From Chiloscyllium plagiosum (taxonomy: Eukaryota): a stretch of DNA of 52,924 nucleotides. Both the position numbers and the translations under genes were made by a program. Location of the stretch: NCBI RefSeq assembly GCF_004010195.1, contig NC_057753.1:15137345-15190268 (forward strand), in the 5' to 3' direction. Under the pieces are notes generated by a model. The model was not told the origin of the DNA and made no database searches. It was given only the letters and a program-made list of their open reading frames with translations. Shown in pieces: positions 8,747-52,600 of the stretch (position 1 is its first letter; every line of letters begins with the position of its first letter).

Positions 8747-8779
8747 CTGTGGGAAAGGAAAATAACCTATAAAATTGCA

Positions 8780-9370
8780 CACGAGGGACACAAAACTTGA
8801 TACAGTACGTTAGGTCTAGTTTGACGAACACCTTACATGAGTGTAACAACACTTCTTTATATACGTAACCCGGTCTATTGCAATAAATGGCAGAGTTTCC
8901 TTTGCCTTTCCTATAATATGCTGTACTTGCCTTCACACTTTCTGTGATTCATTCACAAGGACACCCACATCCCTATGCATTCTCGCACCGTGAACTTGAT
9001 TCTGATCTAAATAAGAATTTGCCCTTTCATCTTGCTGGCCAACATGGACAACCTCGCACTTGTCCATATTAAACTCCAACTGCCACATGCTGTCTCATTC
9101 TCCGAGCCTATCAATATCCATGTATAAGCTGTCTATCTCCTCATCACTGCCTGCTTCCCCATCCATTTTAGTATTATCCGTGAATATTGCTATGTTACAC
9201 TCTGTCTGTCATTGCAGATCACTTATTTCAATTCTCAGTAATTGAGATCCCAGAAATGAACCCTGCGGCAACCCAGACGCTACATTTCGCCGTCCAGAGA
9301 AGGACGCATTTATTCCGACCCTCTGCTTCCATTAGCTGAACAATCCTCTCTCCCAAACAAAAGGACGACA
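8780..9370 (-). mobile_element. CR1 RT fragment in gene 1 intron
   Basis: Degenerate RT region and the YKSKEVLL..LVRL-like motif. It accounts for the spurious N-terminal extension of ORF 7860-8936. Confidence 0.7.
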
Positions 9371-14389: not shown

Positions 14390-15123
14390 TGACTTGTGCA
14401 CTGTGCGGTAGAGCCGTGGTCAATGTTGTCGAATAGAGAGACTGAGGGTTTCAGGGACACCGTTCTGTGAAATCTGCATCACAGGCTGACGGGTGGGTAA
14501 GAAGGCGTTTCGAACACTTGCCTTTATTGCCCATACCATTGAGTCTAGGATAATGACGTCTTTTTTAGGTTGTACAGGATGTCGGTTAGGCCACTTCTGG
14601 CGCACTATGTATAGTTCTGGTTGCCCTGTAACAGGAAAAAATAACATTAAGTTATACATAAATAACATTAAGCTACGCGGCTCATAGCTTTAAATTAAGG
14701 GGGGGGTAGATATAGGACTGATGTTAGGGGTAGGTTCTTCACTCAGCGAGTCGTTAGTTCATGGAATGCCCTGCCAGTAACAGTGGTGGACTCTCCCTCT
14801 TTATGGGCATTTAAGAGGGCATTGGATAGGTATATGGAGGATAGTGGGTTAGTGTAGTTGACTTGTGCACTGTGCGGTAGAGCCGTGGTCAATGTTGTCG
14901 AATAGAGAGACTGAGGGTTTCAGGGACACCGTTCTGTGAAATCTGCATCACAGGCTGACGGGTGGGTAAGAAGGCGTTTCGAACACTTGCCTTTATTGCC
15001 CATACCATTGAGTCTAGGATAATGACGTCTTTTTTAGGTTGTACAGGATGTCGGTTAGGCCACTTCTGGCGCACTATGTATAGTTCTGGTTGCCCTGTAA
15101 CAGGAAAAAATAACATTAAGTTA
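14390..15123 (+). repeat. 265-bp direct repeat (14390-14654 and 14859-15123) flanking a young CR1 internal fragment (~14673-14858)
   Basis: The two copies look identical at an offset of 469 bp. The ORF track shows identical peptides in both (14420/14889 and 14493/14962). Confidence 0.92.
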
Positions 15124-20859: not shown

Positions 20860-21840
20860 TGGGATAATGAAATATATTCGGTTCTTATGGAAGAAGATCT
20901 GGAGAATGTCAATGCTTGAGCGAAAAGCGCTAACAACCATTCACATCAGACAAATGCCAGGCAACAAGGTATAATTTAACCAACGCCTCCTTGATGTTCA
21001 CTGGTGTTACCATCACTGAATTCCCCCACTAACAACATGCTCGGAGTTACTGTCTCCCAACAGGAGTGAATCTAACCGTCACCAGCTTGACATTCAATGG
21101 CGTTACACTCACTGAATCCCCCAATTATCAACATCCTTGGGATTGCCATTGAGACAGAGTCTAACCGTTGCCCCCTTGACATTAAATAGCGTTACCATTA
21201 CTGAATTTCCAAATCACCCCCACCCACACCTAGCCAACTACCAACATTCTGGGAGTTACCGTCTCCTACCAAAAAAAAATAGAAGACTCGCCCCCTTATC
21301 ATTCATTGGAGTTACCAGCAGTGAATCCCGACCACACCAGTATCAACATCTTGGTGGTTACCGTCTCCAACAAGAGAGGATCTAACCAACGCCCCATTGA
21401 TGCTCAATGGAGTTACCATCATTGAATCTCCCTCACTATCAACATCCTGGGAGCTACCATCTCCAACAAGAGAGAATCTAACTATCACCCCTTTGACGTT
21501 CAATGGCGTTACCATCACTAAATCAGCCCACTATCAACGTCTTGTGGTTTACAATTGAGAGAGAATCTAACCATTGCCCTCTTGAAGTTCAGTCGGATTG
21601 CCATCACTGAATCCCGCCCACTATCAACATCCTGGGGGTTACTATTGAGACAGTATCTAATCATTGCCCCTTTGACTTTCATTGGGGATACCATCACTGA
21701 AAAAAGTCGTCCACCACCAACTATCAGCATCTTGGCGGTTACCATCTCTAACATTAGAGCTTTTAACCTTTCACCTTAACATTCAAAAGTGTGACCATTT
21801 CTTAACCCTGCCACTGTCAACATCCTGGGCTTTTACCTTA
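20860..21840 (+). repeat. LINE RT fragment expanded into ~9 tandem ~90-120 bp units in the gene 2 intron
   Basis: The unit is approximately aatctaacc.tcgccccttgacattcaatggcgttaccatcactgaatcccccactatcaacatcctgggrgttaccat. It is preceded by an EDLENVNA*A..TFTSDKCQA-like RT remnant. Confidence 0.85.
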
Positions 21841-22267
21841 TCCATTTTCCAAATGATTTTGGAAGGGATAACTTTTCAAGGATATAGATGAATTAGTCTA
21901 TTTTGTAAATGGAGGTGGCTAAATGTCTTTCAATTATTGCATGCAACAGAAAACATGGTGACGGACAAGTAACCTGCCGCCACTCAGTGTTTTTAATTAC
22001 CCTTTATTTATTAGTGTACAGGATACAAATTTCCTACCTAATCTCCTACCTAAAACAACCAAGGACAACTTGACCTTGTCAAAGGAGCAACATTGTCACA
22101 ATCTTTTGACATGAAAATAGACTTAAGAGAACAGAATGAGTGATTTTTTAAGATGTAGAAATTTATTATCATCTTGTAAATTAAACGTATCATCTGAAGC
22201 AGTTGATCATTATAAAAACAACTGTGTGCGATTTTACTTTTGTTTGTTTGAATCCCATTCCTGACAG

Positions 22268-23256
22268 GTAACTTCCTGACGATTATGATTCTATCTTGTA
22301 AGAAATGTGGTCTATCCAAAAGTGTCAAACTTTACCTGACGGCTATGGTACTGGCAGATCAACTGGTGGTTATCCTCGACCTGATATTGAGACAGATTCC
22401 GATTGTTTATCGTGAAAAGTTTACTTTCCTTCGCAGCATCCGCGTGTGTAATATCCACGCCATCCTGCTTTATGCAGCCACTGACTGTTCTGTCTGGTTC
22501 ACCGTCAGCTTCACCTTTGATCGATTTGTGGCCATTTGTTGCCAGAAACTGAAAAGTAAATATTGCAATGAGAAAACGGCGGCTGTGGTTCTGGGGACAG
22601 TGTCTATGCTGAGCTCTTCAAAGAACTTTTTCTGGTACTTTATGTTCAGTGGCCGGTATTGGATGCAGAACTACCCTTGGTTCTGTTTCATCAGGGTGAA
22701 TGTTACCAATTCTCCAGTTTGGGCAGCATTTGATTTAGTCCACAACATTCTGAATCCCTGTATCCCGTTTGCGTTAATTTTGCTGCTCAATGTTTTCACT
22801 GTAAGGCACATTGCAATGGCCAGCAGAGCTCGCCGCAGACTGTGGCATCGAAGCAGTGGGAAGAGATCGAGAGACGCAGAGATGGAGAGTCGAAAAAAAT
22901 CGATCATTTTACTGTTCGCTATGTCGACCAATTTCATCCTGTTGTGGTCAATGTTAATGGTTTATTCCATATGGAGACGGATGTGGTACTTGGGATATCG
23001 GTCTGTCTTGATAGATAGATATGTGCTTGACTTAGGCTTCATGCTGCAGCTCTTGAGCTGCTGCACAAACACTGGGATATATGCTGTGACCCAGACTAAG
23101 TTCAGAGAGCAGTTCCAGAATGTGCTAAAATATCCTTTCAATCAATTCTTCAGTTCATTCTTTAATCAGTCAATTCCAACACGGTCCCATTGTGAGGATG
23201 TGGGGAAGGCAAGAAGTGTGGTCAGAGAGATGAAGTGGGGTCACGGAGAGGAATAG
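22268..23256 (+). CDS. GPR139-like class A GPCR, gene 2, coding exon 2
   Basis: Acceptor cccattcctgacAG|GT AAC TTC CTG ACG ATT ATG gives (G)NFLTIMILSCKKCGLSK, in frame with ORF 22285-23256. It is collinear with gene 1 (DRF, PWFC, ESRKKS, CCTNTGIY). Confidence 0.92.
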
Positions 23257-25442: not shown

Positions 25443-25580
25443 ACTCTGAGGAAGGGTCACTCGACCCAAAACGTTAGCTCTGATTTCTCTCCACAGATGC
25501 AGTCAGACCTGCTGATCTTTTCCTACAATCTCTATTTTGCTGTCTGAATTTACACAATTCACACTTCTTGACGTTTTTAT
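25443..25580 (+). mobile_element. Penelope-like LTR remnant with mutated hammerhead core
   Basis: CTGAGGA agggtc-actc-gaccc AAAA cgtta (GAAA mutated), followed by ctctccacagatgc..agacctgctga. Confidence 0.7.
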
Positions 25581-33080: not shown

Positions 33081-33899
33081 AACTAATAACTTTTTTTTAA
33101 ACTGGCCATGCATGTGTTAGATCAATTGGTGACGGCGTCATCTCAGTTTTCTGAGCGTTGACACTTTAATGTTTGGACGGCAGAGCTGTCTTCATCCTGT
33201 AACGAAATCTCCGTCTCTGTCCGGCTCCATCATGTTAACCGCTGTATGCTCATTGTATCATAAGCTCTGTCTGAAACGTTGAAGAGAAATCCAAATTTGC
33301 TCGAATGTAATAATAAATTAAAACAATTTTAGATCTTCATTCGAGTCTCTGGAGATTTCATCTCTTTACAGAAGAGCCCAGAGACATAAGGAGCCAGCAG
33401 CAGCCTATTGAGTCAGCTCTGACTGATCTGACCCTCCTCAACTACCAATCTCCTGCCCTTGCCCCCTGAATCCCCGTCCGTCTCTCTCTCTATCTCAACC
33501 TTGAATACCCTCAATGCCACAACCTGCAGCCCTTTCCCCTTGATCCCCCTTCCTCTCTTAAACTTGCGCTCTCTCTCTCTCTCTCTCCCCCTCTCCCCTT
33601 GACAAATCCCACAGATTCACTCCCCTCGGAAAGTGAAGGCTGCATTGCATCTGAGATGATGTCCCTCTGGGTCACAGAGGCTCCCGCTTGAGGGGGAAAG
33701 GGAAACAACCTCATTCCGTGTCATCCCTGTCTAGATCCCATCCACCCGCCCCCACCCCCACCCAACCCAAGAATTTTCTGTTTCAATCCCAGTCACCTCT
33801 CATTCTTCTTGGCTCCCGACGAGGACAGGCCCCGACTGACTTGAACCGTCCCTCGTCAGGCAGTCCCTCCATCCCCGGGATCGGCCAGGTGAACCTTTT

Positions 33900-34445
33900 C
33901 TGGACGCCTACTCGCGAAGTGCTTCACCGAGCATCTCCGGGACGCCCGCAACAATCAACCCCACTGCCTCGTGACCGACCATTTCGATTCCTCCTCCCAA
34001 TCTGCGGAGGGCATGCAGATCCTGGGCCTCCTCCATTGCCTCTCCCTCGCCAACCGACGCCTAGAGGAAGAACGCCTCATCTTCCACCTCGGAAAGCTTC
34101 AACCCCAGGGCATCAATGTGGACTTCTCCAGTTTCCTCATTTCGCCTTCTTTCCACCCCCCCCCACCCCGACAACCTTACCCTAGTTCCAACCTTCCAGC
34201 TCAGCACCATCCTCATGACCTGTCCTACCTGTCAATCTCCCTTCCCATCTATCCACTCCAACCTCCCCTCCGATCTATCACCTCCATCCACCTATTGCAC
34301 CCTCAGCTACCTATTGCACCCTAAGCTACCTTCTTCCCCAACCCCACCTCCCTCCCATTTATCTCTGCCTGCATTCCTGCTGTAGGACTTTTGCCTGAAA
34401 CGTCGATTTTCCTGCTCCTGGGATGCTGTGCTTTTCCAGCCCTAC
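33900..34445 (+). mobile_element. Penelope-like retrotransposon 3' part (GIY-YIG endonuclease C-terminus plus LTR); mirror copy ~50965-51500 (-)
   Basis: DHFDSSSQSAEGMQILGLLHC..RRLEEERLIFHLGKLQPQGINVDF, then a pyrimidine-rich UTR and a degenerate ..gcctGAAAcgtcga hammerhead-type motif at ~34377-34406. Confidence 0.85.
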
Positions 34446-34449
34446 TCTA

Positions 34450-35620
34450 ATGGTGACTGACATCGGCCCCAGCCAATAGCGAGGGGGCCCGGCGGTGACT
34501 GGCACCAGCTCTGGGTGAAGGTGAGGGGCGGAAACTGACAACAGCACTGCGAATCACTGCGGGTGAAGGGCGGTGACCGGAGAGCTCTGACCAATGGGGA
34601 GGGTGAGGCTCGTTAATTGGCGGCAGCCCGCCCAACAGTAATTGACAACGCGGTGACCAATAGTGAGAGTGAGTCGTGAGTTGCCCGACCAATGGTGACG
34701 GGCGGTGACTGACAATGCCGTTGACCAATACTGATAGGGGTAGGCGGTGACGAGCGATGTGCCTAACCAATGGTGACGGGTGGTGACTGACGTTAGATTT
34801 GACCAATCGTGAGGCTGTGGGCAGTGACTGACTCCCGTTCTGACCATCAGTGAGGGAGAGGATTGGTGACTGACAACAGCAATGACCAATCGTAAGGGGG
34901 GCGTCACTTGACTGACAGCAGCTCTGACCAATCATGCTTCCTGGTCAAGACCTTATGCTCGCAACGCCGATTCTCCTGCTCTTCGAATGCTGCCTGACAG
35001 GCTGTGCTTTACGGGTACCACACTCTTCAACTCTAATCGCCAGCATCTGCGGTTCAGTGAGGCTGAGTGGCAACAGTCCTGAGCAGTAGCGGGGTGAGGG
35101 GCGATGACTACTATCGGCCATATCAATACTGAGGGAGTGGGGCGGTGACTGGCAGCAGCTATTACCAATAGTAAATGTGAGGGCCGTGACTGACGTTACG
35201 GCTGACCAATCGGGAGACAGAGGGTAGGTGACTGACGCTGTGGCTGACCAATACTGAGAGAACAAGACCGATAATTGAGAGCATGAGAATAGCGAGTTAC
35301 TGACGTTGCGGCTGACCAATGGTAAGCGTGAGCGGTCTTGACTGATGGTACGCCTGACCAATAGACAGAGCGCGGAGTGTGACTGACGGCGGGAGAAACG
35401 GCGTTTTGGGCACAAGCCCTTCATCAGGAGTCTGACCAATCGAGAGCGTATACCGCATTGATGGACGGCTGCCCGTACCAATCAGGACGGCGATCCGTGC
35501 AGACCGAAGGCCGGCCTGATCAATCGAAGATGATGGCCCTGGCACAACGGACCAATAGTGAGAGAGATCTGCGCTGACCGATGGAAGGACCGACCAATAG
35601 AATGTGACGCCCCGCCCCAA
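34450..35620 (+). repeat. CpG-rich ~40-bp tandem array of GTGACTGAC..TGACCAAT..GGGCG units; possible regulatory array
   Basis: About 18 same-strand CCAAT boxes counted by eye, many preceded by TGACTGAC and followed by GC boxes. Interrupted by Penelope LTR pieces at ~34935-35055 and ~35390-35432. Confidence 0.8.
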
Positions 35621-35837
35621 CACTGTGTCCTTTGAATCACATTGAGAAATGAATTTTGTATGATTAAACGAAACACGAAAATAAATGCAATTCACCATCT
35701 TCCCTTTAAACCAATTGCAGAACATACACTCAAATGAAACCGAGATTGCAATTGTAGTTATCTCAAGACAAAATAAATGTTACTGAATTACAATTAAGTG
35801 CAGCTTATTTCGAGAAGAAAAGAATCACCAATTTGGG

Positions 35838-36322
35838 AATAGAATAGAATAGAATCCCTACAGTATGGAAGCAGGCTATTCGGCCCAACAAGTCCACACC
35901 GACCCTCCAAAGAGTTACCCATCCAGACCCAGTCCCCTAGCCTATTTCTCCACATTTCCCCTGACTCATGCACCTAACCTGCACATCCCCGAACACTATG
36001 GGCAATCCACCCTAACCTGCACATCCCTGTCCATGGTGAGACAATTCTCCATGGTCAATGCACCCTAACCGGCACACTACGGGACAATTTGGCATAGCCA
36101 ACCTAACCTAACCTGCACTTCCGTGGACACTTTGAGCGATTTAGCATGGCAGATCCAGACTATCCTGCACGTCTCTGGAGTGTGGGAAGAAACCGGAGCA
36201 AACTTACACAGACATGGGGAGAATGTGGACACACCACTCAGATAGGCACCCGAGGCTGGAATTGAACCCCGGTCCCTAGCGCTGTGCGGCAGCAGTGCTA
36301 ACCACAGAGCTGCCGTGCCCCA
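35838..36322 (-). mobile_element. HE1-type SINE with internal tandem re-duplications and a (TTCTA)n tail
   Basis: B box GGTTCAATTCC on the minus strand at ~36258-36268, repeated ccctaacctgcacatcc segments, and a gaatagaatagaat tail. Confidence 0.85.
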
Positions 36323-37099
36323 TTGCGGGGCTTCTCACAATATTGTCTGCCTCGGGACGTCACTTGATGAAATAGACTCTCAGACTACCTGAAATACTGT
36401 TTGCAGCTGAATCCAGATGCCCCTGAATGTACCATTCTGGGAGCAAACATGGTGAATTTTAATTCACTTTCTGCAATCTGCAAAGTTTTGTCAACCAGGT
36501 CTCTCAGATTCTCAGTGAGAAAAGAATTCAAAACTCAGATGATCAATAGGTTTTTTCCTCTCTCTGCCCAGATCTCATTGGCAACATGGATCAGACAAAA
36601 CTACTGTGTGTCTCCAAAAACATTACTTGAAGCAGGAAACAACATTGCAACCAAAGAGATTCATAGGCTTTTATACTTACTCTGAAAAAGAAAAATCTGT
36701 TGCTTGTGTACTGGTGTGAGGAGGTCACTAGAAGATAACATGGCACCACTTTAAACACAGGAGGTTGGGGGAAGTGAATTAGAGAGTCTCTGAGCCTTTG
36801 AGGCATCAAGTGTTAATGAATTAATTAATTCATTCAAATTTCCCTTCAGGACAATGTGTGTTCATTGTAGCCAAAGATGGACACACAGATACACGCACAG
36901 AAAAGTAGAGATGCACGTATGGAGATACACATCGGCATGGAGTCACAGAATCAGAGATGCACAGCAGGGAAACAGACTGTCTATGCTCACCAGATATCTT
37001 CAAGTAATCTAGTCGCATTTGCCAGAAATTTGCCCACATCCCTCTAAACCCTTCCTATTCATGCCTTTTAAATGCTCTCATTGTACCAGCCACTGCCTC

Positions 37100-37645
37100 C
37101 ACCTAAACTAAGGGGACATTTCATCGAGCATTTCAGCCGAGCCTGCAGGGGCGGACATGACCTGCCAGTCACTGTCCATTTTAATTCCCCTTCCCACTCT
37201 CTTTCTGACATGACCATCCTCAGTCTCCTCCATTGCCGTCGTGAATCAGACCACATATTGTAGGAACAGCACCTCACCTTCCACTTTGGCAGTCTTACAG
37301 CCTACAGGACTCAACATTGAGTTCTCCCATTTCAAATAAACTCCCTTCTCTTTCCTTCAATCCCTTCAAACTCCTCTGATCTACACTTCCTTCCAGCTCC
37401 CAACCAGATACATTCCTTCCATTGGCCAGCCAGGTTGTACCCTCTACCTGTGTGCATCTATATCCCCACCTCACCACATTGCCCGCTACCCCACCCCCTT
37501 AATTTGCAGCTCCCCTTCTCTCCATTCCCAGTCCTGCAGAAGTGTTGCACTAGAAACGTTGACCTCTCCACCTCCTGACACTGCCTGGCTTTCTGTGTTC
37601 TTCCAGCCTCCAGCTTGTCTACTTTGGATTCCAGATCTGCAGGGT
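37100..37645 (+). mobile_element. older Penelope-like 3' fragment nested in a minus-strand CR1; mirror ~48505-49050 (-)
   Basis: KLRGHFIEHF..DLPVTVHFNSPSHSLSDMTILSLLHC (GIY-YIG C-terminus). LTR with degenerate CTGCAGA..GAAAcgtt at ~37534-37560. Confidence 0.82.
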
Positions 37646-37654
37646 TTTTTTTTG

Positions 37655-38960
37655 TCTCCACCACTTCCTCGGACAGCTCATTCCATGCACGTACTACGCT
37701 CTGTGTGAAAATGTTGCCCCTTAGGTCCCTTTTAAATCTTTTTATCTTATACCCTAAATCTACACTTTCTAGATTGGACTCCCCCACCCCAGGGAAAAGA
37801 CCTTTCTATTTAGCTCATCCATGCCCCTCACGATTTTATAAACCCCTATAACATCACCCCTCAGCCTCTCCCTAACATTGGCAACAACCTTGTAAACTAT
37901 TTTTCTGAACCTTTCCAAGTTTAACAACGTCCTTCATAAGTGGAGGGAGCCCAGAATTGCACATAGTATTCCAAAAATAGCCGGACAAATGTCCTGTATA
38001 GCCGAAACATGACCTCCCAACTCAATGACTATCAGCATTATATCAACCAAACCCTGTCTAATCTTCCCACAATCCATGTCCTTCTTCTTGGTGAATACTG
38101 AAGTGAAGCACTCATTAAGGACCTCGCCCACTTCCTAAGGCTCCACAGATAAACACCCCACTCTGTTCTGGAATGGACCTGCTCTTTCCCTAGATACACA
38201 TTTGCTGTCAACATAGGAATAAAATGCCTTGGGATTCTCCTTAATCCTCCTTACCGAGGGCATTTAATGTCCTCCTTTATCCTTCCTGATTTTTGTTTAA
38301 GTTATTTCCCGTTTCCTGAATATTCTTCAAGGGCTTTGCTTCATTCCTAAACCTTGCATCTGTTACCATTTTGTTTTTTACGAACTTAGAATATCTCTTG
38401 TCATCCACAGGTTCCTTAACTTTCATCAACACAAGAACATGCAAATTCTGAACTTCGATCCATAGAACCTAGAACATTACAGCGCAGTGCAGGATCTTCA
38501 ACCCTCGATGTTGTGCCGACCTGTGGAACCAACCTGAAGCCCATCTAACCGACACTATTCATTCTCGTCCATATGCCTATCCAATGACCATTTAAATACC
38601 CATTAAGTGGGCGAGTCCACAGCTATTGCAGGCAGTGTGTTCTACACCCCGACGACTCTCTGAATAAAGAATTTACATCTGACATCTGTCCTATATCTAT
38701 CTTCCCTCAATGTGAAGCTATGCGCTCTCATTCTGGCCATTACCATCCTCGGAAAAAGGCTCTCAGTTTCCACCGGTTCTCAGACTGATTATCTTATATG
38801 TCTCAATTAATTCACCTCTCAACCTTCTTCTCTCTATCAAAAACAGCCACAAGTCCCTCAAGCTCCTATTGTAAGAACCTCCCTCCATATCAGGCAACAT
38901 TCTAGTAAATCCCCTTTGAACCCTTTCCAAAGTTTCCACATTCTTCCTGTATTGCGGTGA
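37655..38960 (-). mobile_element. stacked CR1 fragments (37655-38450 and 38460-38960); mirror ~47190-48500 (+)
   Basis: KRDLRGNIFTQSVVRAWNEL and GEVLNECFTSVFTK motifs; catagaacctagaac tail at ~38461. Confidence 0.8.
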
Positions 38961-38961
38961 C

Positions 38962-39546
38962 TTGGGAGGGTCATGTCGCAGCTGTACAGGTCATTGGTTA
39001 GGCCACTTGGAATATTGCGTGCAAGTCTGGTCTCCTTCCTATCGGAAAGATGTTGTGAAACTTGAAAGGGTTCAGAAAAGATTTACAAGGATGTTGACAG
39101 GGTTGGAGGATTTGAGCTACAGGGAGTGGCTGAACAGGCTGAGGCTGTTTTCCCTGGAGTGTTGGAGGCTGAGGTGTGACCCGATAGAGGTTTACAATAT
39201 TAAGAGGGGCATGGATAGGATAAATGGAGAAAGTCTTTTCTCAGGGATGGGGGAGTCCAGAACTTGAGGTCATAAGTTTAAGGTGAGAGGGGAAAGATAT
39301 AAAAGAGACCTAAGGGGCAACTTTTTCACACAGAGGATGGAATGAGCTGCCAGAGGAAGTGGTGGAGGCTGGTACAATTGCAACATTTAAAATGCATCTG
39401 GATGGATATATGAATAGTAAGGGTTTGGAGGGATATGGACCGGGTGTTGGCAGGTGGGACTAGATTGGGTTGGGATATCTGGTCGGCATGGACAGGTTGG
39501 ACCGAAGGGTCTGTTTCCGTGCTGTACATCTCTATGATTCTATGAC
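38962..39546 (+). mobile_element. young CR1 3' fragment; mirror ~46600-47190 (-)
   Basis: HLEYCVQVWSPSYRKDVVKLERVQKRFTRMLTGLE and a ctctatgattctatga tail. Confidence 0.92.
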
Positions 39547-39616
39547 CAGATGCACTATCTTCAAAAGACGTCAGATGTGGATTTACCATCAAAAAGCTGC
39601 TCGCCCCATTTTATTT

Positions 39617-39839
39617 GTTGAAATTTTATTGCTGGAACAGCACAGCAGGTCAGGCAGCATCCAGGGAACAGGAGATTCGCGTTTCGGGCACAGGCCCTTC
39701 TTCAGAAACCTTCCTGAAGAAGGGCCTGTGCCCGAAACGTCGAATCTCCTGTTCCCTGGATGCTGCCTGACCTGCTGTGCTGTTCCAGCAATAAAGTTTC
39801 AACTTTGATCTCTAGCATCTGCAGACCTCACTTTCTTCC
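39617..39839 (+). mobile_element. 223-bp palindromic Penelope-LTR-derived insertion with 15-bp TSD
   Basis: TSD cgccccattttattt at 39602-39616 and 39840-39854. An inverted repeat spans 39617-39803. The right arm carries the empty site at ~46530-46546. Confidence 0.92.
39711..39744 (+). ncRNA. minimal type I hammerhead ribozyme motif (Penelope-associated)
   Basis: Stem I UUC/GAA, core CUGAAGA (39714-39720), stem II GGGC-cugu-GCCC, GAAA (39734-39737), palindromic AC|GU stem III and GUC cleavage triplet (39739-39741). Confidence 0.78.
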
Positions 39840-39896
39840 CGCCCCATTTTATTTCTCAAGTTCCTCTATCATACCAGTGCAAGAAGCCTACCCCTA

Positions 39897-40122
39897 TGGC
39901 ACGGTGGTTCAGTGGTTAGCACTGCTGCCTCACAGTGCTATGGACCCATGTTCAATTCCAGCCTTGGGCAACTGTCAGTGTGGAGATTCCACATTCTCAC
40001 TGTGGGTTTCCTCCCACTGTCCAAAGTTGTGCAGGTCAGGTGAATTGGCCATTCTAAATTGCCCGTAGTGTTAGGTGCATTCGTCAGAGGGAAATGGGTC
40101 TGGGTGGGTTACTCTTCGGAGG
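39897..40122 (+). mobile_element. HE1-type SINE truncated by a gap; complete mirror at ~46205-46490 (-)
   Basis: ggcacggtggttcagtggttagcactgctgcctcacag head with a B-box-like GTTCAATTCC. Confidence 0.88.
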
Positions 40123-40470
40123 NNNNNNNNNNNNNNNNNNNNNNNNNNNNNNNNNNNNNNNNNNNNNNNNNNNNNNNNNNNNNNNNNNNNNNNNNNNNNN
40201 NNNNNNNNNNNNNNNNNNNNNNNNNNNNNNNNNNNNNNNNNNNNNNNNNNNNNNNNNNNNNNNNNNNNNNNNNNNNNNNNNNNNNNNNNNNNNNNNNNNN
40301 NNNNNNNNNNNNNNNNNNNNNNNNNNNNNNNNNNNNNNNNNNNNNNNNNNNNNNNNNNNNNNNNNNNNNNNNNNNNNNNNNNNNNNNNNNNNNNNNNNNN
40401 NNNNNNNNNNNNNNNNNNNNNNNNNNNNNNNNNNNNNNNNNNNNNNNNNNNNNNNNNNNNNNNNNNNNNN
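40123..40470. other. assembly gap (348 N); paralogous sequence visible at ~45635-46260
   Basis: N run; both flanks map into the right arm ~630 bp apart. Confidence 1.
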
Positions 40471-41240
40471 CAACTGATCTTGTTTCCTCCGTCCTTCTGA
40501 TGGAGGGAAGGTCATTGATGAAGCAGCTGAAGATGCCTGGGGTCCAGGACACTAACCTGAGGAATTCATGCACAGATGTCCTGGAGCTCAGATGACTGAC
40601 CTCCAACAACCGTGACCACCTTCCAATGTACCAGGGATGCCTCCAACTAGCAGAGATATTGGCCCATAATTTTGCACCAATTTTGCTCAAACTCCTTCAC
40701 GCCCCACTCCATCGAATGCAGCCTTGGTGTTGAGGGCTGTCATTCTCACCTCACCTCTGGAATACAGCTCTTGACAGAGACTGGATGGAGGGTCAGTAGC
40801 TGACAGAACCAAAACTGGGCATCACTGAGCAGGGTCTTGCTGAGTGGCAGCTGCTTGATAGCACTGTTACATATACTGTCCATCACTTTACTGATGATTG
40901 AGTGTATAGAGCAGGAATTGACCAGGTTGAATTGGTCCTGCATTTTATGTACACAACATACCCTGGCAATTTCCCACATTGGTGGGTAGGTGCCACAGTT
41001 GTAACTACACTGGAACAGCTTGGTTAGGGGAGCAAGACTTTATGGAGCACAAGCCTTCAGCAACATTGGTGGACGGTGTCAGGCCCCATAGCCTTTGTAG
41101 CATCCAGTGTCTCCAAACGTTTTTCGATATCAAGGAGAGTATCAAACTCCTATCTGTCATAATAGGCACTACTGGAGAAGGCGAGATGCATCATCCACAC
41201 AGCACTTCTGACTAAAGATTGCTACGAAAGTTCCAGCCCT
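40471..41240 (-). mobile_element. CR1/L2-superfamily LINE RT fragment; mirror ~44870-45680 (+)
   Basis: KAMGPD.., WEIARVCCVHKMQDQFNLVNSCSIHSIISKVM..SAIKQL..LLSDAQF, IFSCFINDLPSI. Confidence 0.85.
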
Positions 41241-41244
41241 TGTC

Positions 41245-41552
41245 ACGGAATCCCAACAATGTGGAAGTAGGCCATTCTGCCCATCAAGTCCACACCAACC
41301 CTCGTTAGAGTATCCCACCCAGACTCTACCCCATCTCCATCTTTCCTTGTCAATCCCTGGACACTTTAGCATGGTCAATCCACCTAAGACACACATCTTT
41401 GGACTGTGGAAGGAAATTGGAGCACCCTGTGGAATTCCACGGAGACACGGCAAGAATGTGTGAACACCACAGGGGCGGTCGCTGGAGTGTGGGATTGAAC
41501 CTAGGTCCCCGGTGCTGCGAGGTAGTGGTGCTAACCACTGAGCCACTGTGCT
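41245..41552 (-). mobile_element. HE1-type SINE; mirror 44437-44868 (+) has a deleted head and an internal tandem duplication
   Basis: gcacagtggctcagtggttagcacc head and B box GGTTCAATCCC on the minus strand. Confidence 0.85.
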
Positions 41553-42065
41553 GACCATTACTTTTTCACTGATATGTTGGGCTCTTCTATCATTGAGATG
41601 GGGACATAAATGGAGCCTCCTCTTCCTTTTAGTTGTCCACCAATTAAAGTACAACTGCGGAGGTTAGTTCTGATCCAGTATCCTGAAATCTCGATTGCCT
41701 GAGAGAGAGGGGTGGTTGTCCAGCTATATAAACGAACCTGGATATTGTTGGATGTTCATTTTGAACCGCTGCACTGCACTGGATCTATTCAGAACATTGC
41801 ATCATATTTGAACTGAGTAAAGTTGCTCTGGAACTTTGGAAGCTGTGTTGTGTATCACTCCCTCTTGAGCAGCACCAAATTGCGCTAAACCATTTTAGTT
41901 CGCTTTTGATGTAAGTAACATCGGCTGTGGTGCAGTGAGACAGGGATCAAGTGATCAATCCATCATGTTTAATACAAATTAATCGCATCCCAAAACAAAA
42001 CACAACTGTGAAAAAGGAGTTGAATGCTTGCTGTGCATCAACTCGAAGCTGACACATCTACATAT

Positions 42066-42250
42066 TGTTACAATGCTTTAACGAAGTAAGTTTGATCTTG
42101 TTTTTTTTAAGAGGGGTCGTAAAAGTAGAGGTGCCATTGGGTCTAGAAAAAGCCTACTGTTACAATGCTTTAACGAAGTAAGTTTGATCTTGTTTTTTTT
42201 TAAGAGGGGTCGTAAAAGTAGAGGTGCCATTAGGTCTAGAAAAAGCCTAC
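42066..42250 (+). repeat. 92/93-bp tandem duplication specific to the left arm, at the start of a probable solo LTR (~42066-42740)
   Basis: tgttacaatgctttaacg...aaaagcctac occurs twice here and once in the right arm (~43957-44048). The LTR call rests on the TGTTA start and recalled similarity, so it is weaker. Confidence 0.8.
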
Positions 42251-43035
42251 TTTAACAATAGCAAAGGAGTGGCTGGTCCTCACAATTCAGATCCCTTCTG
42301 GCTTAGTTTAGCTGTGGCGGTGACAAGATGTTGCAGTCCAGGAGGTTTGAAAGTTCAGCAGATGATTCCTGACTGACTATCCCTCTGAACTGCCTTTGGA
42401 TGTTGTTCCCTCCTGCCTCTACGAATCTGTGTTTCAATTTACCTTTATTGTCAAGAGGCGTGTTTATGGGATGTTGCTAGATTGGAATAGCTCATTAGTT
42501 AAGTTGCGGTATCGTGTCAGTAAAGCTTTCCAATCATTAAATTGTTCTAAATCATGCTTTATTTTGTTCGTGTTTCAACTATAGTATTTAAAGAAATTCT
42601 GTTTTGCTTAAAGCCGAGTGGTTTGATCACTGCATCGCAACTGGAACACCCACTTCACATCTGCCTTTAAAAGAGAAAGAAGTTAGAAACTAGGGAATCT
42701 TCTTGAAATACTTTGAGGGGCTTCTGGCCTGGTCCATAAGAATATGCAGCATAGAAATGTTGGGGATGAATGGCCTCCTTTTGTCCTGTAAATTCTATGA
42801 TCTCTCACACTCTGCACAGACTGTATTTTGTACTACTTATAACCGCCTAACTCACCTCCTGACATTTCACGACAAACTTGATGATGTTTTATTTGGGTTT
42901 AGTAGTTCAAGCATAGATTGTTACAGTGATCTAACAAGAGACAATATGATGGTAAACAAATGTGATGGGCCACATGGGCCAGTGTAGAAAATGATTGCTG
43001 TGGGACAGTCACTGCGTATTTTCCACTGCAGTGAT

Positions 43036-43831: not shown

Positions 43832-46800
43832 AGTCAGGAATCATCTGCTGAATTTTCAAACCTCCTGGACTGCAACATCTTGTCACCGCCACAGCTAAAC
43901 TAAGCCAGAAGGGATCTGAATTGTGAGGACCAGCCACGCCTTTGCTATTGTTAAAGTAGGCTTTTTCTAGACCCAATGGCACCTCTACTTTTACGACCCC
44001 TCTTAAAAAAAAAACAAGATCAAACTTACCTCGCTAAAGCATTGTCACAATATGTAGATGTGTCAGCTTCGAGTTGATGCACAGCAAGCATTCAACCCAT
44101 TTTTCACAGTTGTGTTTTGTTTTGGGATGCGGTTAATTTGTATTAAACATGATGGATTGATCACTTGATCCCTGTCTCACTGCACCACAGCCGATGTTAC
44201 TTACATCAAAAGCGAACTAAAATGGTTTAGCGTAATTTGGTGCTGCTCAAGAGGGAGTGATACACAACACAGCTTCCAAAGTTCCAGAGCAACTTTACTC
44301 AGTTCAAATTTGAAGCAATGTTCTGAATAGATCCAGTGCAGTGCAGCGGTTCAAAATGAACATCCAACAATATCCAGGTTCGTTTATATAGCTGGACAAC
44401 CACCCCTCTCTCTCAGGCAATCGAGATTTCAGGATACTACCTCGCAGCACCGGGGACCTAGGTTCAATCCCAGCGACCGCTCCTGTGGTGTTCACACATT
44501 CTTGCCGTGTCTCCGTGGATTTCCACAGGATGCTCCAATTTCCTTCCACAGTCCAAAGATGTGTGTCTTAGGTGGATTGGCCATGCTAAAGGGATTGACA
44601 AGGAAAGATGGAGATGGGGTAGAGTCTGGGTGGGATACTCTTACGAGGGATGGTGTGGACTTGATGGACAGAATGGCCTACTTCAACATTGTCCTTCCAC
44701 AGTCCAAAGATGTGTGTCTTAGGTGGATTAGTCATGCTAAAGTGTCCAGGGATTGACAAGGAAAGATGGAGATGGGGTAGAGTCTGGGTAGGATACTCTT
44801 ACGAGGGTTGGTCTGGACTTGATGGGCAGAATGGCCTACTTCAACATTGTTGGGATTCCGTGACAAGGGCTGAAACTTTCGTAGCAATCTTTAGTCAGAA
44901 GTGCTGTGTGGATGATGCATCTCGCCTTCTCCAGTGGTGCCTATTATGTCAGGTAGGAGTTTGATACTCTCCTTGATATCGAAAAACGTTTGGAGACACT
45001 GGATGCTACAAAGGCTATGGGGCCTGACACCGTCCAGCAATGTTGCTGAAGTCTTGTGCTCCATAAAGTCTTGCTCCTCTAACCAAGCTGTTCCAGTGTA
45101 GTTACAACTGTGGCACCTACCCACCAATCTGGGAAATTGCCAGGGTATGTTGTGTACATAAAATGCAGGACCAATTCAACCTGGTCAATTCCTGCTCCAT
45201 ACACTCAATCATCAGTAAAGTGATGGACGGTATATGGAAGAGTGCTATCAAGCAGCTGCCACTCAGCAAGACCCTGCTCAGTGATGCCCAGTTTTGGTTC
45301 TGTCAGCTACTGACCTTCCATCCAGTCTTTGTCAAGAGCTGTATTCCAGAGGTGAGGGGAGAATGACAGCCCTCAACAGCAAGGCTGCATTCGATGGAGT
45401 GGGGCGTGAAGGAGTTTGAGCAAAATTGGTGCAAAATTATGGGCCAATATCTCTGCTAGTTGGAGGCATTCTTGGTACATTGGAAGGTGGTCACGGTTGT
45501 TGGAGGTCAGTCATCTGAGCTCCAGGACATCTGTGCATGAATTCCTCAGGTTAGTGTCCTGTACCCCAGGCATCTTCAGCTGCTTCATCAATGACCTTCC
45601 CTCCATCAGAAGGACGGAGGAAACAAGATCAGTTGAACAGCCAAGCTTGGGTTGACAAGTGGCAAATGACATTGACACAACGTTAGAAATATTTCACTTT
45701 AACCACTTCAGTCTCATTCTGGTGTCAGACTGAAGGTGATGTCAACGGAGGTGTGGCGATTCGTGAGAAATTCATGGTTTTACCCTCTGTCCTTTCCTGT
45801 ATGGCTCTAGGTTTAGGTATGGGTCAGTAAAGAATATGGATATCTAGGCATTTTCTTGAAATGACCTGATCGGAATTGTGTTCATCTATGTTTTTCAGGA
45901 GTGATCATTTGCTGTGCTTTAGATTCCCCTTTTGAAATAAATCACACTTTCCCACTTGTTCTTTTAGATTCAGTTATATAAATACATCACTTGATACAAT
46001 AATAATCTTTATATTCTCAATCGTGCTGATAAAACCATTTCATAACCTGAAAACGTCAAACTTGCACTAGGAAATGTGTTAGCCCAGGTGTTTGAATTTT
46101 CGACGGGACAGCATTTTGGGAAAGGCAATCATAATTCTGTGCGTTTTAAGTTAGTTAAGGATACTGAAAATACTGGTCCTGGGGTGAAAATATCAAATTA
46201 GGGTAGATTAGATTACCTACAGTGCGGAAACAGGCCCTTCGGTCCAACAAGTTCACAACGACCCTCCAAAGAGTAACCCACCCAGACCCATTTCCCTCTG
46301 ACGAATGCACCTAACACTACAGGCAATTTAGAATGGCCAATTCACCAGACCTGCACAACTTTGGACAGTGGGAGGAAACCCACAGTGAGAATGTGGAATC
46401 TCCACACTGACACTTGCCCATGGCTGGAATTGAAAGTGGGTCCCTAGCACTGTGAGGCAGCAGTGCTAACCACTGAACCACCGTGCCATCGGGGTAGGAT
46501 ACTTGCACTGGTATAATAGAGGAACTTGAGAAATAAAATGGGGTGAGCAGCTTTTTGATGGTAAATCCACATCTGACGTCTTTTGAAGATAGTGTATCTG
46601 GTCATAGAATCATAGAGATGTACAGCACGGAAACAGACCCTTCGGTCCAACCTGTCCATGCCGACCAGATATCCCAACCCAATCTAGTCCCACCTGCCAA
46701 CACCTGGTCCATATTCCTCCAAACCCTTCCTATTCATATATCCATCCAGATGCATTTTAAATGTTGCAATTGTACCAGCCTCCACCACTTCCTCTGGCAG

Positions 46801-49800
46801 CTCATTCCATCCTCTGCGTGAAAAATTTGCCCCTTAGGTCTCTTTTATATCTTTCCCCTCTCACCTTAAACTTATGACCTCAAGTTCTGGACTCCCCCAT
46901 CCCTGAGAAAAGACTTTCTCTATTTACCCTATCCGTGCCCCCTCATGATTTTATAAACCTCTATAAGGTCACCCCTCAGCCTCCGACGCTCCAGGGAAAA
47001 CAGCCCCAGCGTCTTCAGCCTCGCCCTGTCGCTCAAATCCTCCAACCCTGTCAACAGCCTTGTAAATCTTTTCTGAACCCTTTCAAGTTTCACAACATCT
47101 TTCCGATAGGAAGGAGACCAGACTTGCACGCAATATTCCAACAGTGGCCCAACCAATGACCTGTACAGCCGCAACATGACCTCCCAAGTCACCGCAATAC
47201 AGGAAGAATGTGGAAGCTTTGGAAAGGGTTCAAAGGTGATTTACTAGAATGTTGCCTGATATGGAGGGAGGTTCTTACAAGAGGAGCTTGAGTGACTTGA
47301 GACTGTTTTTGATAGAGAGAAGAAGGTCGAGAGGTGAATTAATTGAGACATATAAGATAATCAGTCTGAGAACCGGTGGAAACTGAGAGCCTTTTTCCGA
47401 GGATGGTAATGGCCAGAATGAGAGTGCATAGCTTCACATTGAGGGAAGATAGATATAGGACAGATGTCAGATGTAAATTCTTTAATCAGAGAGTCGTCGG
47501 GGTGTAGAACACACTGCCTGCAATAGCTATGGACTCGCCAACTTAATGGGAATTTAAATGGTCATTGGATAGGCATATTGACGAGAATGAATAGTGTAGG
47601 TTAGATGGGCTTCAGGTTGGTTCCACAGGTCGGCACAACATCGAGGGCTGAAGATCCTGCACTGCACTGTGATGTTCTAGGTTCTATGGATCAAAGTTCA
47701 GAGTTCGCATGTTCTTGTGTTGATGAAAGTTAAGGAATCTGTGGATGACAAGAGACATTCTAAGTTTATTAAAAACAAAATGGTAACAGATGCAAGGTTT
47801 AGGAATGAAGCAAAGCCCTTGAAGAATATTCAGGAAACGTGAAATAACTTAAATAAAAATTAGGAGGGATAAAGGAGGACATTAAATGCCCTCGGTAAGG
47901 AGGATTAAGGAGAATCCCAAGGCATTTTATTCCTGTGTTGACAGCAAATGTGTATCTGGGGAAAGAGCAGGTCCATTCCAGAACAGAGTGGGGTGTTTAT
48001 CTGTGGAGCCTTAGGAAGTGGGTGGGGTCCTTAATGAATGCTTCACTTCAGTATTCACCAAGAAGAAGGACATGGATTATGGGAAGATTAGACAGGGTTT
48101 GGTTGATATAATGCTGATGGTTATTGAGTTGGGAGGTCATGTTGCGGCTATACAGGACATTTTTTCGGCTGTTTTTGGAAAACTGTGTGCAATTCTGGGC
48201 TCCCTCCAATTATGAAGGACGTTGCTAAACTTGGAAAGGTTCAGAAAAAAAGTTTACAAGGTTGTTGCCAATGTTAGAGAGAGGCTGAGGGGTGATGTTA
48301 TAGGGGTTTATAAAATCGTGAGGGGCATGGATGAGCTAAATAGAAAGGTTTTTTCCCTGGGGTGGGGGAGTCCAATCTAGAAAGTGTAGATTTAGGGTAT
48401 AAAATAAAAAGGTTTAAAAGGGACCTAAGGGGAGCAACATTTTCACACAGAGGGTAGTACGTGCATGGAATGAGCTGTCCGAGGAAGTGGTGGAGACAAA
48501 AAAAAACCCTGCATATCTGGAATCCAAAGTAGACAAGCTGGAGTCTGGAAGAACACAGAAAGCCAGGCAGTGTCAGGAGGTGGAGTGGTCAACGTTTCTA
48601 GTGCAACACTTCTGCAGGACTGGGAATGGAGGGAAGCGGAGCTGCAAATAAAGGGGGTGGGGTAGCGGGCAATGTGGTGAGGTGGGGATATAGGTGCACA
48701 CAGGTAGAGGGTACAACCTGGCTGGCCAATGGGAGGAATGTATCTGGTTGGTAGTTGGAAGGAAGTGTAGATCAGAGGAGTTTGAAGGAATTGAAGGAAA
48801 GAGAAGGGAGTTTATTTGAAATGGGAGAACTCAATGTTGAGTCCTGTAGGCTGTAAGACTGCCGAAGTGGAAGGTGAGGTGCTGTTCCTACAATATGTGG
48901 TCTGATTCGCTACGGCAATGGAGGAGACTGAGGATGGTCATATCAGAAAGAGAGTGGGAAGGGGAATTAAAATGGGCAGTGACTGGGAGGTCATGTCTGC
49001 CCCTGTAGGCTCGGCTGAAATGCTCGATGAAATGTCCCCTTAGTTTAGGTGGAGGCAGTGGCTGGTACAATGAGAGCATTTAAAAGGCATCAGGATGGGG
49101 ACATGAATAGGAAGGGTTTAGAGGGATGTGGGCCAATTTCTGGAAAATGCGACGAGATTAATTGAGGATATCTGGTTAGCACAGACGGTCTGTTTCCCTG
49201 CTGTGCATCTCTGATTCTGTGACTCCATGCCGATGTGTATTTCCATACGTGCATCTCTACTTTTCTGTGAGTGTGTCTGTGTGTCCATCTTTGGCTACAA
49301 TAAACACACATTGTCATGAAGGGAAATTTGAATGAATTAATTAATTCATTAACACGCGATGCCTCAAAGGCTCAGAGACTCTCTAATTCTCTTCCCCCAA
49401 CCTCCTGTGTTTAAAGTGGTGCCATGTTATCTTCTAGTGACCTCCTCACACCAGTACACAAGCAACAGATTTTTCTTTTTCAGAGTAAGTATAAAAGCCT
49501 ATGAATCTCTTTGGTTGCAATGTTGTTTCCTGCTTCAAGTAATGTCTTTGGAGACACACAGTAGTTTGGTCTGATCCATGTTGCCAATGAGATCTGGGCA
49601 GAGAGAGGAAAAAACGTATTGATCATCTGAGTTTTGAATTCTTTTCTCACTGAGAATCTGAGAGACTTGTTTGACAAAACTTTGCAGGTTGCAGAAAGTC
49701 CATTAAAATTCACCATGTTTGCTCCCAGAATGGTACATTCAGGGGCATCTGGATTCAGCTGCAAACAGCATTTCAGGTAGTCTGAGAGTCTATTTCATCA

Positions 49801-52188
49801 AGTGACGTCCCGAGGCAGACAATAATGTGAGAAGCCCCGCAATGGGGCACGGCAGCTCTGTGGTTTGCAAAATTCATTTCTCTGTGTGATTCAAAGGACA
49901 CAATGTTGGGGCGGGGTGTCACATTCTATTGGTCGGTCCCTCCATCAGTCAGCGGAGCTCTCTTTCACTATTGGTCCGTTGTGCCAAGGCCATCATCTTC
50001 GATTGATCAGGCCAGCCTTCGGTCAGCACGGATCGCCGTCCTGATTGGTGAGAGTAGCCGTCCATCAACGCGGTGTAGGCTCTCGATTGGTCAGACCCCT
50101 GATGAAGGGCTTGTGCCCGAAACGCCGTTTCTCCCGCCGTCAGTCTCGCCCCGCTCTCTGTCTATTGGTCAGGCGTTCCATCAGTCAAGACCGCTCACGC
50201 TAACCATTGGTCAGCCGCCACGTCAGTAACTCGAAATTCTCATGCTCTCAATTACCGGTCCTTGCTCTCTCACTATTGGTCAGCCGCAACGTCAGTCACG
50301 GCCCTCACATTTACTATTGGTAATAGCTGTTGCCAGTCACCGCCCCAATCCCTCACTATTGATATGGCCGATAGTAAGTCATCGCCCCTCACCCCGCTAC
50401 TGCTCAGGACTGTTGCCACTCACCCTCACTGAACCGCAGATGCTGGCGATTAGAGTCGAAGAGTGTGGTACCCGTAAAGCACAGCCGGTCAGGCAGCGTC
50501 CGAAGAGCAGGAGAATCGGCGTTGCGAGCGTAAGGTCTTCATCAGGAAACATGATTGGTCAGAGATGCTGTCAGTCAAGTGCCGCCCCCCTTACGATTGG
50601 TCATAGCTGTTGTCAGTCACCAGTCTTCTCCCTCACCGATGGTCAGAACGGGAGTCTGTCACCGCCCACAGCCTCACGATTGGTCAAAGCTAACGTCAGT
50701 CAACACCCGTCACCATTGGTCGGGAACTCACCAGTCACTCTCACTATCGGTCACCGCATTGTCAATTACTGTTGGGCGGGCTGCCGCCAATCAACGAGCC
50801 TCACCCTCCCCATTGGTCAGAGCTCTCCGGTCACCGCCCTTCACCCGCAGGTATTCGCAGTGCTGTTGTCAGTCCCCGCCCCTCACCCTCACCATTGCCC
50901 AGAGCTGGTGCCAGTCACCGCCGGGCCCCCTCGCTATTGGCTGGGGCCGATGTCAGTCACCGTTAGAGTAGGGCTGGAAATGCACAGCATCCCAGGAGCA
51001 GGAAAATCGACGTTTCAGGCAGAAGTCCTGCAGCAGGAATGCAGGCAGAGATAAATGTGAGGGAGGTGGGGTTGGGGAAGAAGGTAGCTGCGGGTGCAAT
51101 AGGTGAATGGAGGTGATACATCGGAGGGGAGGTTGGAGTGGATAGATGGGAAGGGAGATTGGCAGGTAGGACAGGTCAGGAGGATGGTGCTGAGCTGGAA
51201 GGTTGGAACTAGGGTAAGGTTGGGGGGGGGGGAGGCGGGGGGAAAGAAGGGGAAATGAGGAAACTGGAGAAGTCCACATTGATGCCCTGGGGTTGAAGCT
51301 TTCCGAGGCGGAAGATGAGGCGTTTTTCCTCCAGGCGTCGGTTGGCGAGGGAGCGGCAATGCAGGAGGCCCAGGATCTGCATGCCCTCCGCAGATTGGGA
51401 GGAGGAATCGAAATCGTCGGCCACGAGGCAGTGGGGTCGATTGGTGCGGGCGTCCCGGAGATGCTCGCTGAAGCGCTTCGCGAGTAGGCATCCAGAGAAG
51501 GTTCACCTGGCCGATCCCGGGGATGGAGGGACTGCCCGACGGGGGACGGTTCAAGTCAGTCGGGGCCTGTACTCGTCGGGAGCCAAGAAGAATGAGAGGC
51601 GAATGGATTGAAACAGAAAATTCTTGGGTTGGGGGTGACGTGGGATCTAGACAGGGATGACACGGAATGAGGCTGTTTCCCTTTCCCCCTCATGCGGGAG
51701 CGTCTGTGACCCAGAGGGACATCATCTCAGATGCAACTGCAGCCTTCACTTTACGAGGGGAGTGAATCTGTGGGATTCGTCAAGGGGAGAGAGAGAGAGA
51801 GAGAGCGCAAGTTAAAGAGAGGAAGAGGGATCAAGGGGAAAGGGCTGCAGTTTGGGGCATTGAGGTTATTCAAGGTTGAGTTAGAGAGAGAGACGGATGG
51901 GGATTCAGGGGGCAAGGGCAGGAGATTGGTAGTTGAGGAGGGTCAGATCAGTCAGAGCTGACTCAATAGGCTGCTGCTGGCTCCTAATGTCTCTGGGCTC
52001 TTCTGTAAAGAGATGAAATCCCCAGAGACTCGAATGAAGATCTAAAATTGTTTTAATTTATTATTACATTCGAGCAAATTTGGATTTCTCTTCAACGTTT
52101 CAGACAGAGCTTATGATACAATGAGCATACAGCGGTTAACATGATGGAGCCGGACAGAGACGGAGATTTGGTTACAGGATGAAGACAG
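43832..52188 (-). repeat. right arm of large inverted segmental duplication
   Basis: Starts at the gap edge with the reverse complement of 42374 leftwards and ends at gttacaggatgaagacag, the reverse complement of 33186-33203. Confidence 0.95.
49905..50965 (-). repeat. mirror copy of the CCAAT tandem array, three units shorter
   Basis: Repeated ATTGGTCA..GTCAGTCAC. It lacks a 78-bp and a 42-bp segment present in the left arm. Confidence 0.8.
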
Positions 52189-52261
52189 ACAGACAGCTGC
52201 GGGGTGCCAGAAGGTGGAGGCTTGGGTACACAACAGGCAGGAAGTGGAGGAGCCAAACAAC

Positions 52262-52600
52262 AAGACAGCGTCACCCTGGCAACACGCCAGCGTCACCCAG
52301 TGTCATCTCGGCGACAGGGCAGTGTCACCTCAGCAACAGGACGTCACCCCGGCAACAGGACAGTGTCACCCCAACAACAGCACAGCATCACCCAATGTCG
52401 TCCAAGCGACAGAACAGTGTCACCCAGGCAACAGTACAGCATCACCCAATGCTGTCCAGGCGACAGGACAGCATCACACAAGCAACAGGACAGTGTCACC
52501 CAGCGTCACCCTAGCAACAGGACGGTGTCATCCAGACGACAGGACAGTTGTCACCCAGCATCACCCTGGCAACAGGATAGTGTCATCTAGTGTAACCCCA
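52262..52600 (+). repeat. ~22-bp minisatellite (CAGTGTCACCCNRGCAACAGGA) containing RFX X-box consensus matches
   Basis: More than 12 variant units. GTCACC-N2-RGCAAC occurs at 52270, 52324, 52343, 52419 and 52505. Confidence 0.85.

Follow-up and report, generated by a model that had tools for sequence, protein, structure and literature searches.

A fold-back insertion in the Chiloscyllium plagiosum genome, very probably a stub of two truncated Penelope-like element ends

Insertions of Penelope-like elements (PLEs), whose proteins have an RT followed by a GIY-YIG domain (Frangieh et al. 2024, PMC11167929), typically combine an inverted, 5'-truncated copy adjoining the 5' end with a tail of 30-40 bp at one end only, according to Craig et al. 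(2021, PMC8557442), who ascribe the tail to endonuclease resolution; the 30-40-bp tail is also described by Frangieh et al. (2024). In the account of Arkhipova et al. (2013, PMC3846280), inverted pLTRs occur together with a 31-bp tail and target-site duplications (TSDs) of 8-10 bp, one of which was confirmed by an empty allelic site, and self-priming is the preferred explanation of head-to-head PLE junctions. Frangieh et al. (2024) report that a purified anole PLE protein, a dimer by prediction, introduces nicks into both strands, extends both and prefers AT-rich DNA, that reverse transcription starts at two internal sites bounding the tail, and that ribozyme cleavage is dispensable and protein-assisted. 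How PLEs make head-to-head insertions is treated as still open in both of the more recent accounts (PMC8557442; PMC11167929), and a literature search, with most subscription journals outside its scope, returned no paper on fold-back PLE stubs in sharks or on two-nick priming for PLEs. The minimal hammerhead (min-HHR) of metazoan PLE terminal repeats was defined by Cervera and De la Pena (2014, PMC4209133), in whose description monomers do not cleave, dimers cleave at a low level, and the motifs form opposite-strand pairs 100-700 bp apart or, mostly, solo motifs from truncated PLEs. Finally, the non-LTR retrozymes of Li, Clavereau and Pollet (2026, 10.64898/2026.07.22.740005) are protein-less, PLE-derived arrays of units in direct tandem orientation, in which one strand carries two or more complete type I hammerheads.

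The locus described here lies in a window of 52,924 nt (the whole stretch of DNA analysed, from whose first base all positions are counted), which is vertebrate DNA rich in repeats. Between two plus-strand copies of a 15-bp sequence (39602-39616 and 39840-39854; 15/15 identical, with no extension possible at either side) is an insert of 223 bp, 39617-39839. The 15-mer occurs only these two times in the window (composition probability ~1e-9), and an AT-rich portion makes up 9 of its 15 bases, which places the duplication at an AT-rich site, as for EN+ PLEs. An inverted duplicate of the region carries a single copy of the target on the minus strand (46531-46545; 14/15 identical to the TSD, with one CpG-type G/A difference) and no insert, so that the 15 bp were duplicated on insertion. 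A hairpin takes up the first 187 nt of the insert; in it a minus-strand arm of 89 nt (39617-39705) faces a plus-strand arm of 90 nt (39714-39803) across an unpaired, head-to-head junction of 8 nt (39706-39713, its last three bases, 39711-39713, being the 5' strand of hammerhead stem I). Only 2 of 90 positions differ between the arms, namely a substitution at 39796 (a G-U wobble in the plus-strand RNA) and an absent base opposite T39740; the fold has a computed energy of -190.7 kcal/mol (z -27.9), and none of 200 shuffles was equally stable. The minus-strand transcript folds equally well (-190.2 kcal/mol) and bears the broken copy of the hammerhead motif. Each of these points (the 223-bp insert with its perfect duplication, its absence from the paralogous site, and the near-perfect hairpin) had been claimed in a preliminary description of this DNA and held up here; what that description missed is a 36-nt 3' extension, 39804-39839, which is present on the plus arm only and is unpaired. 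We considered an assembly fold-back artefact as the source of the hairpin and ruled it out on the duplication, the one-sided tail and the empty site.

We conclude that the insert very probably consists of two 5'-truncated PLE end pieces placed head to head between a 15-bp TSD, a PLE stub built at insertion. Its likely origin is a single integration event carried out by an autonomous element's protein, and the insert is likely unable to move again, a dead-end by-product and no new element. Because an inverted 5'-truncated copy, a tail and a TSD have already been published together (PMC8557442; PMC3846280), the fold-back stub is a known type of PLE insertion in its smallest form, and its layout is not itself new. 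Canonical EN+ PLE units as described in those two sources share with the insert the head-to-head inverted repeat, the tail at one end, the TSD and the AT-rich target; the insert, however, lacks an ORF, and its two arms are truncated at one shared position, the front edge of the hammerhead. Its TSD measures 15 bp against the 8-10 bp given by Arkhipova et al. (2013), and its junction is an 8-nt loop where Pen2a in the same source has a 15-bp overlap. It likewise resembles the Poseidon element PAc of Anolis carolinensis, for which two internal RT starts bounding the tail, nicking of both strands and a ribozyme unneeded in vitro are described, whereas the PAc ORF starts in the hammerhead (PMC11167929) and the insert has no ATG there.

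The ends of the two arms can be compared with those of the wider family. Four of 24 sequencing runs were matched to 39706-39900 at 88% likeness. The contig sets of three of them (X1, X5 and X9, under two species labels) yielded 14,784, 19,730 and 19,542 contig records, a depth that is not a copy number; the PLE repeat family is very large and dispersed. The fourth, RNA run X22, gave 0 matching reads in the ~6% of it that was covered, which says nothing on expression. Among the best 18 of 403 loose ends, the best-supported 3' ends fall at 39790/39791 (164+88, 157+83 and 227+85 contigs in the three runs) and at 39836 (65, 52 and 98 contigs), the latter 3 letters before 39839. Past 39790/39791 the commoner variant subfamily departs, the majority letters continuing for ~13 nt to the equivalent of 39803, and beyond both ends lies mixed AT-rich DNA. 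The inverted arm, a tail-less terminal repeat, thus has its outer end at the first preferred family 3' end, the point that 39803 marks on the plus arm, and the plus arm with its extension runs to the second. The 36 plus-strand nucleotides between the two ends (39804-39839), present at one end only and of the length expected of a PLE tail, are that tail. The foremost 5' loose end, again among the best 18 of 403, is 39711, the hammerhead front edge, in all three runs (60, 89 and 83 contigs; agreement 0.38-0.41), a pile-up that is partly forced, since 39706-39710 is junction DNA at which longer copies would break too. Each of the 14 joints listed is confined to one run, at depths of 12.5-220; 39711 is entered from 39750, 39751 and 39770, in joints that we infer to be unequal head-to-head pairs. 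None of these 14 carries a strand-change label; the matched stretch began at the loop, so that the insert's own centre could not appear among them. Past the right TSD contig coverage is patchy (to ~39866 in X1, none past 39852 in X5, to ~39887 in X9), and no piece spans the stretch. In a fold of the plus arm by itself, the first family 3' end (39803) is predicted to sit inside a 6-bp stem-loop at 39789-39805, which loosely resembles the AC-rich stem-loop at which reverse transcription starts in the anole PLE (PMC11167929) and may serve as a lead only.

A PLE origin is also indicated by a remnant within the window. Over 55 nt, the plus arm shares 78% identity with a degenerate hammerhead repeat that begins at 34374 in the decayed 3' end of a related PLE (33780-34450, plus strand, outside the insertion), downstream of a pyrimidine-rich spacer and of a decayed endonuclease C-terminal frame at 33893-34138; a mirror of this 3' end lies on the minus strand at ~50963-51600 in the inverted duplicate. 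A library search with the frame gave 260 matching proteins at E <= 0.001. Of 14 relatives scanned, which were picked mainly for length, 10 have GIY-YIG at E <= 0.05 (3 of the 14 above the Pfam cut-off) and 3 of those 10 also have RVT_1. Pfam returned nothing meaningful on the frame itself, a word-indexed protein search gave 0 of 55 candidates at E <= 0.001, and the Atlas provided a weak lead (one cluster at 0.92, with GIY-YIG on 15% of its members). One database relative of the remnant (P0080) has, by eye, a cysteine-rich, Zn-finger-like linker between RT and endonuclease. Such a linker may point to a neighbouring protein of Neptune rather than Poseidon type. The insert's tie to an RT-endonuclease gene is indirect, running through this 78%-identical neighbour, and no full-length parent of its own subfamily was seen. 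The proposal in the preliminary description that the insert is an extremely truncated and inverted PLE copy is thereby supported by the family 3' ends, the PLE remnant and the published insertion pattern. Counting mirror pairs once and judging by eye, there are five other repeat-end loci in the window, two of which start at the hammerhead edge and two seemingly further upstream.

Several features of the surrounding DNA may be recorded here. Further degenerate stubs resembling PLE ends or hammerheads, apparently of other families, occur at 37531-37660 (+), 25443-25565 (+) and 19734 (-). A GC-rich array extends over 34450-35600 (mirror ~49870-50960); it consists of degenerate units of 40-60 bp, many of them containing a CCAAT word, and is broken by two PLE end stubs, at 34938 (+) and 35430 (-). 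Two intronless rhodopsin-family GPCR frames (7860-8948, minus; 22252-23256, plus) are 75-80% alike in DNA and opposite in orientation; a 265-nt direct repeat (14390-14654 and 14859-15123; 100% identical, 469 nt apart) is either a very young duplication or an assembly overlap; and degenerate minisatellites of ~54 bp and 89-90 bp occupy 52248-52580 and 21118-21701, respectively.

The plus arm carries a minimal type I hammerhead motif (39711-39744, plus strand), the single match to a minimal-hammerhead descriptor on either strand of the whole window (core start 39714), with 0 matches in 200 dinucleotide shuffles. Its parts are a 3-bp stem I, the conserved core at 39714-39720, one bulged base, a 4-bp stem II (39722-39725/39730-39733), GAAA at 39734-39737 and a palindromic, loop-less stem III, with the predicted cut after 39741. 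The motif thus has the features of the min-HHR as defined by Cervera and De la Pena (2014): it is of type I, with the conserved core, a bulge before stem II, a G-C closing pair, and loop-less, palindromic stem III positions. It differs from the Schistosoma families of that source in its shorter stems I and II (3 and 4 bp vs 4-5 and 7-8 bp), and the two motifs of the insert are 8 nt apart with one of them broken, as against 100-700 bp in the published pairs. In the inverted arm U16.1, the U of GUC, is absent, its position being the missing partner of T39740; the descriptor finds no match there and this copy is predicted to be inactive. Rfam hammerhead families gave no match at E <= 1 in the whole window or at E <= 10 in 39700-39770, and the hammerhead core motif had 0 matches in viral, metagenome and prokaryote collections. 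Matches of a downstream motif to the same collections (0, 4 and 3) were dropped as chance, all 7 being only 25-27 nt long with dissimilar flanks. The earlier claims that every core element is present on the plus arm and that the inverted arm lacks the U are therefore both borne out, and the term "intact" is apt for the motif; it is less so for the fold, since stem I has only 3 bp and a probability of ~0.001 in the full arm.

Folding models suggest that the insert would conceal its own ribozyme. The energy penalty for imposing the hammerhead fold is 51 kcal/mol on the whole insert (-139.3 vs -190.7 kcal/mol) and 3.2 kcal/mol on the plus arm alone. The probability of stem II is 0.0 in the whole insert and at all six partial transcript lengths, the hammerhead presumably being buried at these lengths too because the inverted arm is transcribed first. 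A read-through transcript of either strand is thus predicted to fold into a 90-bp duplex burying the ribozyme, and the suggestion that long double-stranded RNA sequesters the ribozyme agrees with these computed folds. In the plus arm alone, stem II reaches a probability of 0.8-0.9 and stem I one of ~0.001, which rises to 0.18-0.24 in a 42-nt piece; when two copies of the minimal hammerhead were co-folded, the best structure was not the stem III dimer. Since the 3-bp stem I hardly forms in the models and the expected dimer does not appear on co-folding, ribozyme activity seems doubtful even without the inverted arm.

The empty site belongs to a larger structure, in which 33186-42374 recurs in inverted orientation at 43832-52188. 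The alignment of the two copies covers 7,551 bases, of which 4.0% are substituted (163 transitions and 140 transversions), and has 22 gaps. Among 8 indels examined between the two 9-kb copies none looked like a second PLE insertion with a TSD. Tandem duplications of ~91, 151 and 19 bp (42102-42192, 44592-44742 and 34305-34323) are each found in one copy only. Precise loss of an insert from one copy is rare, and the insert is younger than the split of the two 4%-diverged copies, to which extent the earlier statement that it is recent and postdates the duplication stands. Between the arms, 2 differences in 90 positions (95% interval 0.3-7.8%) are not distinguishable from 4.0% (Fisher p = 0.44, with 2/105 when the TSD is included).

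That the two 9-kb copies are paralogs is what their 4% divergence argues for, although the mirror copy begins at the very first base (43832) after a 500-N gap, with the first copy extending 957 nt beyond it, so that the copies may be haplotypes of one locus mis-joined over the scaffold gap and the insert a presence/absence polymorphism. We consider this unlikely: substitutions at 4.0% together with several indels of 40-640 bp are high for vertebrate alleles, and the window has other inverted paralogs in its two GPCR genes. The identity of the insert is open to two further readings, which both fare worse. The preliminary description had also offered a non-autonomous hairpin/ribozyme family, a MITE- or retrozyme-like one whose copies would arise when the entire 223-bp palindrome is transcribed and inserted again in one piece. 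The very high abundance of the family, the clustering of 5' ends at the fold-back point of this copy and the existence of PLE-derived non-autonomous retrozymes in vertebrates, one cartilaginous fish included (10.64898/2026.07.22.740005), are what one would expect of such a unit, and the insert is, like the retrozymes, protein-less, PLE-derived and of hammerhead type I. It is, however, a single inverted pair with one complete motif, not the direct tandem arrangement by which retrozymes are defined; no hairpin of this kind besides 39617-39803 was seen in the window; and the 90-bp duplex would be predicted to hide both the RT start sites and the ribozyme. The joints listed, with their low depth, their restriction to one run each and their three points of entry into 39711, include no shared centre, albeit in a stretch that began at the loop, and we regard this reading as very improbable. 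Still harder to credit is a functional RNA gene, whether a ribozyme switch under regulation or a source of small RNAs that silence PLE copies of this family. The near-perfect 90-bp duplex, formed by a highly repeated sequence, would suit such a role, and PLE copies yield small RNAs in a rotifer (PMC3846280), but the mirror copy lacks the insert, one of its two ribozyme motifs is already defective, and neither a promoter nor a host gene was identified nearby.

If the insert is, as we hold, a PLE stub built at insertion, two routes to it deserve comparison, and we infer, with a slight leaning only, that both strands were primed from nicks. A PLE protein would nick the two target strands at points 15 nt from each other. 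On the top strand, the 3' end that follows the T-rich side of the target would prime reverse transcription at the first internal start and yield the tail-less inverted arm, while the bottom-strand 3' end would prime at the second start, 36 nt further on, and yield the tailed arm. Both copies would stop just upstream of the hammerhead core and be joined head to head, the ribozyme motif being carried along within the terminal repeat. Given building at insertion, self-priming, in which the growing DNA folds back near the hammerhead and copies itself and the endonuclease resolves the product at the tail boundary, is a serious possibility though not the one we expect; as an explanation of the locus overall it is tentative, and it would leave the PLE origin unchanged. 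Besides being the mechanism proposed for head-to-head PLE junctions by Arkhipova et al. (2013), it accords with the almost exact symmetry of the arms and, weakly, with the 5-bp mini-hairpin that 39709-39713 can form at the junction with its reverse complement, 39719-39723. Yet a 5-bp match is itself weak, the centre is an 8-nt unpaired loop and hence an imperfect palindrome, and the end of the inverted arm is a family 3' end seen also in copies that run straight into flanking DNA.

As a single insertion with a published layout, this stub matters little, and its value is that of a clean data point. A filled site near its empty twin fixes the length of the TSD, the assignment of each arm to a nick and the points at which both copies ended, and the pair likely fixes the nick positions. 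Should many such pairs be found with each arm ending at one RT start, they would favour two-nick priming and give the design of an in vitro test. We offer, as a speculation that we do not ourselves expect to hold in full, that symmetric stubs record PLE integration: a dimeric enzyme would prime at the two nicks of a cut staggered by 15 nt, using one start site for each, and would copy a discrete RNA of ~130 nt whose 5' end lies just ahead of the hammerhead. Such a short RNA would act as a non-autonomous template of its own, comparable to a SINE, and the palindrome would be an inherently self-silencing product. If true, filled and empty pairs would map nick geometry and template ends genome-wide.
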